Below, piece after piece: positions 29,309-32,714 of a stretch of 48,007 bases of DNA (within the stretch, counting starts at the first letter, position 1; each line of letters begins with the position of its first letter). This DNA comes from an uncultured Clostridia bacterium (GTDB lineage: Bacteria > Bacillota > Clostridia > TANB77 > CAG-508), in NCBI GenBank assembly GCA_947629625.1, contig CANRES010000004.1, positions 1-48,007 on the forward strand. The letters run 5' to 3'. Under the pieces are notes generated by a model, which saw nothing but the letters and a program-made list of their open reading frames with translations, was not told where the DNA came from and searched no databases. Made by a program: the position numbers and the translations under genes.

Positions 29309-29833
29309 ATGGCTAAAAATAGAAAATTAGGTAGAACAACAGACCAAAGATTAGCAATGTTAAAAACACAAACTACTGATGTAATATTACATGGAAAAAT
29401 AGAGACTACTGAATGTAGAGCAAAAGAAGTAAAATCAATAGTTGATTCTTTAATAGCATTAGCAATTAAAGAAAAAGATAATTTTGATATGGTTGATGTA
29501 AAAGTTGTTCGTGCTAAATTAGACAGTAAAGGAAATAAAGTTACAGAAAAAGTAACAAGCAAAAATGGTAAAGACTACTTAAAAGTAGTAAAAGAAGAAA
29601 TTACTGAAAGTAGACAAAAAGATAAGCCAACAAGATTAAATGCAAGAAGAAAAATGATGAGAAAATTAAATAAAGTTAAAGATAGTGAAGGTAAAAATAT
29701 AGATTTACCATCAAAATTATTTAACGAAATAGCTCCAAAATACGAAGGTAGAGTTGGAGGATATACAAGAATAATAAAATTAGGACAAAGAAGAGGAGAT
29801 GCAGCAGAAGTTGTTATTCTTGAATTAATTTAA
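29309..29833 (+). CDS. rplQ: 50S ribosomal protein L17 with internal insertion
   Basis: [42 protein letters not shown]; 174 aa. Confidence 0.96.
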
Positions 29834-29857
29834 AAAAATATCAACATATAAGAAAAT

Positions 29858-29978
29858 TGTGCGTTAGCGAAAGCAAAGCTTTCGACGCACACATGTGCAT
29901 TTTGCTTCGCAAATATGCACAGCCCAATGTAAATTAACCTTTTTGTATACAGAAAAATCTTCGATTTTTCCTATACAA
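29858..29978. repeat. Three tandem hairpins downstream of rplQ (REP-like or structured 3' UTR)
   Basis: H1 29858-29891 TGTGCGT..CGAAAGC-AAA-GCTTTCG-ACGCACA; H2 29894-29921 TGTGCATTTTGC-TTC-GCAAATATGCACA; H3 29943-29978 TTGTATA..GAAAAATC-TTC-GATTTTTC.TATACAA. Confidence 0.75.
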
Positions 29979-30030
29979 TAAAAAAGAGAAACTAGATAGT
30001 GATTATCTAATTTCTTTTTTTATTGTATAG
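29971..30030. terminator. Long terminator hairpin ending the alpha operon
   Basis: CTATACAATAAAAAAGAGAAA.TAGATA / TATCTA.TTTCTTTTTTTATTGTATAG. Confidence 0.7.
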
Positions 30031-30047
30031 AAATTCTTATAAAAGTA

Positions 30048-30076
30048 TTGAAAAAGTGAATTTTTTATGTTAAAAT
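30048..30076 (+). promoter_or_regulatory. sigmaA promoter of the type III TA operon
   Basis: TTGAAA-N17-TAAAAT with TGn extended -10. Confidence 0.8.
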
Positions 30077-30108
30077 GAATATACTGAATAAGTAATAGCA
30101 ATATTACT

Positions 30109-30219
30109 AAAAAAGATGGAGTACCCAAGCCATAGTGGGAATTAAAAAAGATGGAGTACCCAAGCCATAGTGGGAATTAAAAAAGATGGAGTACCCAAGC
30201 CATAGTGGGAATCAAAAAA
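30109..30219 (+). ncRNA. Type III TA antitoxin RNA (ToxI/antiQ-like), about 3.2 tandem 35-nt repeats
   Basis: Unit AAAAAAGATGGAGTACCCAAGCCATAGTGGGAATT at 30109, 30144 and 30179 (third ends ATC), no spacers. ATGG/CCAT and CCCA/TGGG form an H-type pseudoknot. Located between promoter and terminator, upstream of the toxin. Confidence 0.92.
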
Positions 30220-30221
30220 TA

Positions 30222-30249
30222 AGGGGGCAACTTTTTAAAGTTGCCCTTT
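30222..30249 (+). terminator. Terminator between antitoxin repeats and toxin gene
   Basis: AGGGGGCAACT / AGTTGCCCTTT hairpin with a short U tract, consistent with partial read-through. Confidence 0.85.
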
Positions 30250-30270
30250 AATAATATTTAGGAGGTAAAA

Positions 30271-30750
30271 ATGGAAAAATTAAAACTTTATTATATAGAA
30301 AATAATTATATAGAATATTTAAGAAAATTTGATAGCAAGGTAGCATACAACAAAATACCTAATAGACCATATATAGGAGTTGTATATACATATAATAATT
30401 TTAAATATTTTGCACCTTTAAGTTCACCAAAAGAAAAACATATAAAAATGAATAATAATGTTATAGATTTATTTAAAATAAAAAATGGTGAATTAGGTGT
30501 TATAAACTTAAATAATATGATACCATGCCCAGAAAAAGTATTACACGAAATTATACCAATAGTAAAAGATGATAAATATAAAAAATTATTAGAAAATCAA
30601 ATTACTGAAATTAATTCAAAAAGAGAAAATTTATATAAAAAAGTATATAGATTTCAAAGAGAATATAGAAACAATAGATTATTTCCTAATATTCTAAATA
30701 GATGTTGTAATTTTATTTTATTGGAGCAAAAATGCATAGAATATAAATAA
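30271..30750 (+). CDS. Type III TA endoribonuclease toxin, ToxN/AbiQ family
   Basis: 159 aa; YIEYLRKFDSKV, RPYIGVV, YFAPLSSPK, GVINLNNMIP, CCNFILLEQKC. RBS AGGAGG; canonical repeat-terminator-toxin layout. Confidence 0.92.
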   Translation: MEKLKLYYIENNYIEYLRKFDSKVAYNKIPNRPYIGVVYTYNNFKYFAPLSSPKEKHIKMNNNVIDLFKIKNGELGVINLNNMIPCPEKVLHEIIPIVKDDKYKKLLENQITEINSKRENLYKKVYRFQREYRNNRLFPNILNRCCNFILLEQKCIEYK

Positions 30751-30854
30751 AAAATCATATTTTCTTATAATATTACAAAAATATAGTCTAAATACTAGAA
30801 ATATAATAATTTTTGTGATATTATATAGGGGTAAAAAAATTTTGGGAGCAAATT

Positions 30855-32714
30855 ATGGACAAAATAATAGATAACATAAATTCAGTAGAAGATGTAAAGA
30901 AATTAACAATAGAAGAAAAAAAACAACTAGCGCAAGAAATTAGAGAATTCATAATAGAAACAGTATCAAAAACAGGGGGGCATCTTGCATCAAATTTAGG
31001 AGTTGTAGAATTAACAATTGCTTTACATTCAATATTTGATGTACCAAAAGATAAAATAGTATGGGACGTAGGACATCAAACTTACGTGCATAAAATACTA
31101 ACAGGGAGAAAAGATAAATTAAATACAATAAGAACACTAAATGGACTAGCAGGATTTCCAAAAGTGTGTGAATCAGAATGCGATTGTTTTAATACAGGTC
31201 ATAGTAGCACATCAATATCAGTAGCACTAGGAATGGCAAAATCAAGAGATTTAAAACAAGAAAAAAATAGTGTAATAGCAGTAATAGGAGATGGAGCACT
31301 TACAGGAGGAATGGCATTAGAAGCCTTAAATAATGCAGCAAGCCTAAATACCAACATAATTGTAATTTTAAACGATAATGAAATGAGCATATCAAAAAAT
31401 GTTGGTGGAATTTCAATGAGTCTTAGTAGACTTAGAACAAAAAAGTTTTATACAAAATCTAATAAATATGTAAAAAGCGCATTAGGAAAACTACCAAAAC
31501 AAGGTAAAAAATTTATAAGATTTATTAGAAAAATAAAATATAGTATCAAGCAATTAATATTACCAAACATGCTATTTGAAGACTTAGGCTTTAAATATTT
31601 AGGACCAGTTGATGGTCATAATATTGAAAAACTAGAAGACTTATTAAGAATTGCAAAAGACATAGACGGACCAATATTAATACATGTAATAACAAAAAAA
31701 GGCAAAGGTTACAAGCCAGCAGAAGAAAATCCAGATAAATTCCATAGTAGTTCTAGTTTTGATATTGAAACAGGTAAACCTTTAAAAGAAAAGAAAGAAG
31801 ATTATTCTAATACATTTGGAAAAAAGATAGTAGAACTTGCAAAAGAAAACAAAAATATTGTAGCAATTACAGCTTCAATGAAAGATGGTACAGGTTTAAC
31901 AGAATTTGCAAAAGAATTTCCTGAAAGATTTTTTGATGTTGGAATTGCAGAACAACACGCATTAGGAGTTGCAGCAGGACTTGCAAGTCAAGGACTTATA
32001 CCAATAATACCAATATATTCTTCATTTTATCAAAGAGCATATGATCAAGTAATACATGATATATGTATTCAAAAATTACCAGTTATCATGTGTGTAGATA
32101 GAGCAGGAATTGTTGGAAATGATGGAGAAACACATCAAGGAATATATGATTTATCATTTTTTAACATTGTACCAAATCTAACAATTATGGCACCAAAAGA
32201 TTTTAAAGAATTAGAAAATATGTTAGAATTTGCAATAAATTTAAAAGCACCAGTTGTTATAAGATACCCAAAGGGAAGTGAAGGGAAAAATAAAGTTGAA
32301 ACAGAAACAGAAATACAACTTGGAAAAGCAGAAAAAATAAATGATGGACAAGACCTAACAATTGTTGCAATTGGAAAAATGGTAGATAGGGCAATAGAAA
32401 TATCAAAAATATTAAAAGAACAAAATATAAATGTAGACTTAATAAATGCAAGATTTTTAAAACCATTAGATGAAGAAACAATATTAAATTCTATAATAAA
32501 AACTAAAAAAGTAATTACAATAGAAGATAATATTATAAAAGGTGGTTTAGGAAGTAGTATAGAAGAAGTAATAATAAAAAATAATATAAAAGATATAAAA
32601 TTTAAAAAATTTGGATATCCAGATAAATTTATACAACATGGAAATATAGAAGAATTAGAAAAAATATATAAATTAGATACAAATAGTATTATAGAAGAAA
32701 TAAAAAAATTATAA
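30855..32714 (+). CDS. dxs: 1-deoxy-D-xylulose-5-phosphate synthase
   Basis: GGHLASNLGVVELT, WDVGHQ, GDGALTGGMALEALN, DVGIAEQHA, DGETHQG. Confidence 0.97.
   Translation: MDKIIDNINSVEDVKKLTIEEKKQLAQEIREFIIETVSKTGGHLASNLGVVELTIALHSIFDVPKDKIVWDVGHQTYVHKILTGRKDKLNTIRTLNGLAGFPKVCESECDCFNTGHSSTSISVALGMAKSRDLKQEKNSVIAVIGDGALTGGMALEALNNAASLNTNIIVILNDNEMSISKNVGGISMSLSRLRTKKFYTKSNKYVKSALGKLPKQGKKFIRFIRKIKYSIKQLILPNMLFEDLGFKYLGPVDGHNIEKLEDLLRIAKDIDGPILIHVITKKGKGYKPAEENPDKFHSSSSFDIETGKPLKEKKEDYSNTFGKKIVELAKENKNIVAITASMKDGTGLTEFAKEFPERFFDVGIAEQHALGVAAGLASQGLIPIIPIYSSFYQRAYDQVIHDICIQKLPVIMCVDRAGIVGNDGETHQGIYDLSFFNIVPNLTIMAPKDFKELENMLEFAINLKAPVVIRYPKGSEGKNKVETETEIQLGKAEKINDGQDLTIVAIGKMVDRAIEISKILKEQNINVDLINARFLKPLDEETILNSIIKTKKVITIEDNIIKGGLGSSIEEVIIKNNIKDIKFKKFGYPDKFIQHGNIEELEKIYKLDTNSIIEEIKKL

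Follow-up and report, generated by a model that had tools for sequence, protein, structure and literature searches.

Positions 30048-30750 (forward strand) of the DNA analysed here, a stretch of 48,007 nucleotides from contig CANRES010000004.1 of an uncultured Clostridia bacterium (GenBank assembly GCA_947629625.1) that is called the window below, hold a complete, intact-looking type III toxin-antitoxin module of the ToxIN family. It forms an insert of about 0.7 kb that separates two core genes of this small gut bacterium. An earlier note, made from the sequence alone, had described this cassette, and its coordinates and description proved to be right: the extended -10 element, the repeats, the hairpin and the toxin open reading frame (ORF) were all found again. 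From 5' to 3' the features are the following.

30048-30076, + strand: promoter-like site, with -35 element TTGAAA (30048-30053), a 17-nt spacer and an extended -10 element TGnTAAAAT (30068-30076)
30092-30107, + strand: leader hairpin with a 6-bp stem and a GCAA loop, just 5' of the first repeat, read from the sequence and present in the minimum-free-energy fold
30109-30219, + strand: toxI-like antitoxin array of 35-nt units (30109-30143, 30144-30178 and 30179-30213) with a closing A6 (30214-30219)
30153-30174, + strand: proposed pseudoknot core of unit 2, with helix 1 (GG 30153-30154 with CC 30165-30166) and helix 2 (CCCA 30159-30162 with TGGG 30171-30174)
30222-30249, + strand: terminator or attenuator hairpin that separates the array from the toxin gene, with 12 pairs (5 of them G-C), followed by the tail AATAATATTT with a weak U tract
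30260-30265, + strand: ribosome-binding site AGGAGG, 5 nt before the ATG, read from the sequence
30271-30750, + strand: toxN, encoding a predicted endoribonuclease toxin of 159 aa of the ToxN/AbiQ family, based on ORF, profile and structure matches

Tandem Repeats Finder (TRF) reported the array at 30108-30219 with a period of 35, 3.2 copies, 98% matches and a score of 217. The three near-identical 35-nt repeats of the earlier description are two identical units and a third that differs at its last base alone. The array lies on the same strand as the toxin gene and ends 51 nt before the toxN ATG, and no second array of this type was found in the genome. The promoter-like site scores 10/12 with the TG and is the top site in 29800-30900, a region in which promoter-like sites as a class are not enriched (7 vs 9.8 ± 3.2 in shuffled sequences). 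Terminator-like sites number 2 in the same comparison, against 0.3 ± 0.5 in shuffles, and both are the two strands of the hairpin at 30222-30249, which agrees with the terminator described before, including the weakness of its U tract.

The control elements can be compared in an alignment of seven cassettes, i.e. the window and six loci with the same repeat type. Here the TTGA of the -35 element is invariant, the -10 region aligns and is mostly conserved, the GAATATAC-like start region is largely conserved, and the leader palindrome is common to the cassettes. A hairpin precedes the ribosome site, with a sequence that varies from locus to locus. A palindrome at the place of the leader hairpin was also seen by eye, uncounted, in most upstream stretches of related loci, again with differing sequences.

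The toxin

A match to the ToxN-family profile had been set beforehand as the decisive test, and the toxN product matches Pfam ToxN_toxin (PF13958) at E 2.1e-40 with 138.9 bits (cut-off 25), over positions 1-159 of the 159 in the profile. No other Pfam family matched this protein at E 0.1. The AbiQ model of PADLOC matches it at E 8e-39, and its only significant relatives among solved structures are 4ATO (E 1.1e-19), 2XD0 (5e-16), 7D8O (2e-14) and 4GLK (2.8e-14). An AlphaFold model built on 59 homologues (predicted local distance difference test, pLDDT, 94.3; predicted template-modelling score, pTM, 0.89) has the twisted antiparallel beta core with surrounding helices that characterizes the ToxN fold. 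It superposes on 7D8O, 2XD0, 4ATO and 4GLK with template-modelling (TM) scores of 0.84, 0.82, 0.77 and 0.82, and the next fold match is CptN at a TM of only 0.40 (E 0.05).

The residues on which activity would depend are largely recognizable. The catalytic site of ToxN_Ec consists of Lys33, Thr52, Ser53 and Lys55, on a conserved scaffold of Gly37 and Ala49-Pro50-Leu51 (PMC8860590). In a HMMER alignment to 2XD0, of which the printed chain positions were taken as ToxN numbering given that residue 1 is the first of the chain, these positions correspond to R32, S51, S52 and K54, and to G36 and A48-P49-L50. Arg also replaces Lys33 in the E. coli clusters 4 and 5 (PMC8860590). At the position where the protein has Ser and ToxN has Thr, AbiQ's RNase activity was reportedly lost only with Ser51Leu and was retained with Thr (PMC5086642), and the protein shares with AbiQ the Ser at this active-site position. 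Each of R32, S52, P53 and K54 is present in at least 90% of the 59 homologues, whereas G36 and P49 do not vary. In ToxN_Ec the RNA is held by Trp57 and Phe88, the positions of which are occupied here by Lys56 and Asn82. This would fit a differing cut-site preference; ToxN_Bt likewise has Asn at the second of these positions.

The evidence from the coding and control regions bears on the possibility that the locus is an inactive relic, of the right sequence family but without remaining expression or toxicity. Neither the U tract nor the promoter call goes beyond a consensus match, which leaves room for such a state. Against it stand an intact ORF that is full length with respect to the profile, kept active-site positions, an array in which a single base departs from perfect repetition, and a ribosome site, promoter and hairpin at conserved places. 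We therefore consider a relic very unlikely.

The repeat family and its probable pseudoknot

How common such cassettes are was evident from a profile scan of one genome per species, which gave 530 ToxN-encoding stretches among 599 candidates. The best 80 were retained, and these are mostly from metagenome-assembled genomes (MAGs) of uncultured Clostridia, Bacilli or 'Tenericutes', with identities up to 74%. A protein search returned 1811 relatives, the nearest non-self one being 86% identical. A tandem repeat of 34-37 nt in 2.2-4.3 copies is present in 76 of the 80 loci, where the distance from the end of the array to the start codon is 43-134 nt, or 277 nt in one case; of the four loci without an array, two have less than 200 nt of sequence upstream. 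In 76 of 77 repeat-bearing loci, array and start codon are separated by a hairpin with an energy of -8 kcal/mol or lower (median -13.7, with differing sequences and no shuffle control). In a search of whole genomes, ToxN homologues occurred in 18 of 41 sampled relatives, this genome included and often with more than one each, and clear arrays were detected at 9 of 20 ToxN loci of relatives at the TRF settings used. The repeat, which the earlier note had presented as unrecognised, in fact belongs to a large family of repeats found in MAGs of gut Firmicutes, in which those 76 loci are built alike.

Three groups of repeats can be distinguished: the 35-nt type of the window (seven loci and the window itself), a 36-nt type that spans 35-37 nt and is built on the same plan as the window repeat (32 loci), and a GCGGTG type (37 loci). 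Each starts with an A run followed by G and has a central GCC or ACC, and the type of repeat shifts together with the toxin subfamily. Rfam has no family for these repeats: at E up to 10 there were 9 matches, each far short of its gathering score, and on the array itself just one, to sbrA on the minus strand with 14.6 bits against a required 45. The lack of an Rfam match would also be expected if the repeats were an unrelated repeat RNA, e.g. a small array resembling CRISPR, or a repeat located by chance upstream of a ToxN gene. However, the units abut without spacers, the order of array, hairpin and toxN recurs throughout the related loci, and a change of repeat type along with toxin subfamily is not what an unrelated repeat would do, so that this explanation is extremely improbable.

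Viral sequences were covered as well. The window-type repeat pattern had no exact match in viral contigs, and a scan of these contigs with the single protein found no relative. A profile scan of the same collection detected 26 viral contigs with ToxN relatives, at identities of at most 51%. Phages in that collection carry the ToxN family, not this subfamily.

An H-type pseudoknot had been proposed for each repeat, with a four-pair ATGG/CCAT helix interleaved with CCCA/TGGG, and both pairings can be drawn on all three units. Its natural variation was followed within subfamilies. When all 81 repeat units were aligned together with MAFFT, the subfamilies were out of structural register with each other; this alignment was set aside, and pairs were counted in subfamily alignments, from which L017, L020 and L023 (no A run followed by G) and L096 and L102 (phase rule failed) were excluded. 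Among the 27 distinct rows of the 36-nt subfamily, every cell of helix 2 is paired (100%), and two of its pairs have CG to UA double changes (22/5 and 23/3). Of the two inner pairs of helix 1, one is GC in 27/27 rows and the second in 25/27, with one AU and one unpaired row, whereas the outer pairs of this helix are unpaired in 15/27 and 20/27 rows. Covariation in this subfamily is 0.187, against 0.111 ± 0.014 in shuffled alignments (0 of 500 reached the observed value) and at most 0.080 in slid controls. The 28 distinct rows of the GCGGTG subfamily have helix 1 paired throughout (100%; GC 24, AU 3, GU 1; GC 28; UG 19, UA 7, CG 2), and UA 25/CG 3 in helix 2. The compensatory changes in these two sister subfamilies support the topology that had been proposed, but not its four-pair helix, of which the inner GG/CC alone is conserved. 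We conclude that the topology is probably right and that helix 1 would consist of 2-3 conserved pairs rather than 4.

Comparison with described type III systems places the locus in the toxIN family. Repeats of 31-62 nt in 1.9-5.6 copies and toxins of 70-288 aa are reported for toxIN, whereas repeats measure 40-48 nt in cptIN and 39-57 nt in tenpIN (PMC3401426). The window values of 35 nt, 3.2 copies and 159 aa lie within the toxIN ranges, and 35 nt is outside both others, as the earlier assignment on repeat length had held. CptIN (Eubacterium rectale, 4RMO) and TenpIN share the layout of repeats, terminator and toxin as well as an endoribonuclease toxin; membership of these families was rejected on the basis of the low TM with the CptN fold, the repeat length and the exclusive Pfam match to ToxN_toxin.

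The best sequence match with a solved structure is ToxIN_Bt (Bacillus thuringiensis pAW63, 4ATO), which has the same order of repeats, terminator and toxin. Its toxin also has Asn where ToxN_Pa/Ec have Phe88, according to the 4ATO and 2XD0 alignments. The differences are an identity of about 33%, a location on a plasmid instead of the chromosome, and a solved chain of 194 residues, of which positions 8-170 align with the 159 aa found here. Cut sites in this family are A-rich, with A/AAAA for ToxN_Bt and A/AAA for AbiQ (PMC5086642), and the former fits the A6 run between the units. AbiQ/antiQ (Lactococcus lactis pSRQ900, 4GLK) is likewise about 33% identical and plasmid-borne; its phage-defence phenotype was demonstrated, whereas the present locus is known from sequence alone. 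ToxIN_Pa (Pectobacterium atrosepticum pECA1039, 2XD0/2XDD) and ToxIN_Ec (7D8O) belong to the same Pfam family and share the fold and equivalent active-site positions, but have 28% identity and cut at AA/AU and GAAAU rather than in a pure A run. The antitoxin of ToxIN_Pa has 5.5 repeats of 36 nt, compared to 3.2 of 35 nt here, and the repeat folds as an H-type pseudoknot (PMC5086642; PMC3401426). Both ToxI_Pa and ToxI_Bt are small pseudoknots of this type between single-stranded tails (PMC5086642).

Judged by its sequence, the locus appears to have every feature by which toxIN systems are recognized, and we put the probability that it is a genuine type III toxin-antitoxin module of the toxIN family at roughly 85%. 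The cassette is real, yet ordinary, as the family is very common in related gut bacteria. A number of observations weigh against this assignment or against parts of it. Among the sequencing runs listed, none is recorded as RNA. The covariation of the GCGGTG subfamily (0.172) is barely above that of a control slid by -1 (0.164), and what this subfamily contributes is therefore its percentage of paired cells (89.7 vs 64.3) together with the per-pair counts. The eight window-type repeats are without covariation, with 84.4% paired as compared to 83.9% in shuffles (310 of 500 reach it), so that the pseudoknot of the exact repeat rests on homology to the sister subfamilies. Helix 1 comprises few conserved pairs and either helix by itself is only marginally stable, and the fold would thus need both helices, tertiary contacts or the protein. 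In nested folding of one unit, helix 2 alone is the minimum-energy structure at -4.6 kcal/mol, and a 4-bp helix 1 alone gives -1.9. Because of its weak U tract, the hairpin at 30222-30249 could be an attenuator or a processing signal instead of a terminator. Finally, Tyr29, which is also listed among the ToxN active-site residues (PMC5086642), is without an aligned counterpart, since it falls in an insertion of the 2XD0 alignment.

Genomic setting and the empty site

The genome of 1.26 Mb is available in 68 contigs and is 98% complete. The window has a G+C content of 26.5%, with 46% A on the + strand. The cassette is flanked as follows.

29309-29833: rplQ (Ribosomal_L17, E 1e-27)
30061-30756, no strand assigned: segment of 696 bp that is present here and absent from the corresponding spacer of the same-genus genome G002, with boundaries uncertain by a few bases
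30855-32714: dxs (DXP_synthase_N, E 4e-123)

The site between rplQ and dxs that had been indicated before is borne out by Pfam matches to both flanking genes, and no mobility gene adjoins the cassette. Its position among core genes therefore stands, but it is no peculiarity, since 57 of 67 toxIN loci are chromosomal (PMC3401426).

The earlier note had called for a comparison across strains; comparison with a genome of the same genus gave a filled site here and an empty one in G002. In that genome rplQ and dxs are adjacent, the cassette is absent, and the L17 protein is 99% identical; the DNA is 96.8% identical over 878 nt up to 30076 and 95.3% over 365 nt from 30736. The segment that is absent from G002 runs from the promoter spacer to six bases beyond the toxN stop, and its left junction falls within a promoter-like A+T-rich stretch that the empty site has too. 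The junction flanks are no more alike than expected by chance: their score of 22 was also attained in 143 of 500 dinucleotide shuffles and in 67 of 965 random genomic windows. For that reason no target-site duplication or direct repeat is claimed. An 8-base T6AT match at the two insert ends was seen by eye, in A+T-rich DNA. G002 has a ToxIN system of its own, of the GCGGTG subfamily, elsewhere on the same contig.

Gut-metagenome contigs contain both forms. An X5 contig joins 30054 to 30761 with 8 letters between, which is the empty-site form (depth 3.3, shorter side 34 letters), and in an X4 contig (depth 4.0) 30021 is joined to 30759 across 38 other letters. The filled junctions are bridged by further contigs from X1, X5 and X6, and X1 may be the source sample. 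As their depth is low and they were matched at 90% likeness, the metagenome contigs may stem from a sister species, and they lend weak support to a presence/absence polymorphism.

The surroundings of related loci were also compared. No dxs was found downstream of rplQ in four other genomes, one of the same genus and three of the same family, in which the stretch covered was about 4-4.4 kb in three and about 670 nt, up to the contig end, in G001. None of 101 other ToxN loci had rpoA, rplQ, dxs or a YkuD-like gene within flanks of about 3 kb. The 128 ORFs flanking 38 subfamily-1 loci include 10 tyrosine recombinases with SAM-like N-domains and 5 further ToxN genes, and modules of subfamily 1 thus occur in tandem or nearby. 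The other flanking families, among the top 25 listed of 98 matched, are mostly housekeeping.

The presence of the 696-bp cassette in one of two genomes with flanks that are about 96% identical is behaviour of an accessory element. It would suit an active toxin-antitoxin pair of which the role is selfish persistence or stabilisation of the locus (addiction) rather than phage defence. Some type III systems stabilise plasmids (PMC5086642), and phage resistance was reported for two of the three families and only in an enteric test host (PMC3401426). On the other hand, toxIN and AbiQ were discovered via abortive infection (PMC5086642), PADLOC files the protein under AbiQ, and the scattered, often multiple occurrence of ToxN homologues in the sampled relatives is a pattern typical of defence genes. 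A role in addiction and not in defence is on balance unlikely, and the two roles are mutually compatible.

Several further observations concern the genome at large. Another ToxN-type gene, from a different subfamily, lies in two parts at the ends of contigs C43 and C65, and where these parts overlap they differ at 2 residues. Its promoter and leader are much like those in the window, and upstream of it there are three copies of a 29-nt motif with a spacing of about 58 nt. With this gene and its own repeats, the ToxIN systems of the genome number at least two, and their repeats are of different types. Just past rplQ, at 29855-29935, lies a G+C-rich element of 81 nt with two hairpins. At least five near-full copies with 83-100% identity, as well as partial copies, are present on different contigs of this genome; the element also occurs in the empty site of G002, and one X5 metagenome contig lacks 29837-29980. 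It has no Rfam match and looks like a small dispersed intergenic repeat. The L17 protein has 174 aa, and the 97-position Pfam model spans residues 17-174, which implies a large internal insertion relative to the model. The DNA beside the ToxIN system of G002 matches more than 40 places in the present genome at 78-95% identity, many of these at contig ends. It corresponds to the 5' portion of the genes of a multi-copy family together with their upstream region; the products of this family start with a prepilin-like hydrophobic N-terminus, as read from the translation by eye. This family probably causes much of the fragmentation of the assembly.

Proposed mechanism and implications

By analogy with the characterized systems, the ToxIN module may be envisaged to work as follows. 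From one promoter, transcription would cover the leader and the three 35-nt toxI repeats, and would extend into toxN where the leaky hairpin is read through. Since read-through at the terminator hairpin would be limited, antitoxin RNA would be in excess over toxin mRNA, in line with the rationale given for such terminators, which set a high ratio of the one to the other (PMC5086642). ToxN, as a metal-independent endoribonuclease, would cut the precursor within the A6 runs and release three 35-nt monomers, each a small H-type pseudoknot with single-stranded A-rich tails, which would join with ToxN head to tail into a closed RNA-protein ring in which the active site of ToxN is blocked. A halt in transcription or degradation of the RNA, as may happen during phage infection, would deplete the labile antitoxin RNA, and the freed ToxN would cut A-rich sites in cellular and phage RNA, with arrest of growth as the result. 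Cleavage in A runs, inhibition by monomers, the stoichiometry of the ring, toxicity and phage defence are all inferred here from these analogies.

Targets for such an enzyme would be abundant. The 48-kb window contains 639 A runs of at least 5 on the + strand, or 13.3 per kb, against 84 T runs, and nine A runs lie in toxN. With runs so frequent on the coding strand, a freed toxin would reach nearly every mRNA, its own included. The earlier expectation of very many targets is borne out by these counts, and holds if the specificity is as inferred.

A wider interpretation combines the empty site with the variety of repeats. It is conceivable, though rather improbable, that the promoter-to-stop cassette of about 0.7 kb itself moves as a bare mini-cassette, and that the toxI types constitute a large uncatalogued RNA family. 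If this were true, ToxIN modules would come and go in the intergenic promoter regions of core genes in reduced gut Firmicutes, here immediately upstream of the essential dxs. This would happen without a dedicated mobility gene, a target duplication or a terminal repeat, and the exchange would presumably take place after uptake of DNA, through recombination of flanking or promoter-like sequence. The toxI types, with one pseudoknot plan and at least two per genome here, would then diversify against cross-talk.

The known workings of type III systems are unchanged by these results. What the locus adds to this well-described family of defence and addiction systems is a clean chromosomal example, in which the module could be delimited to 696 bp through an empty site in the same genus. 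The related toxI repeats of uncultured gut Firmicutes, in which natural variation supports the pseudoknot, could seed an RNA family model.

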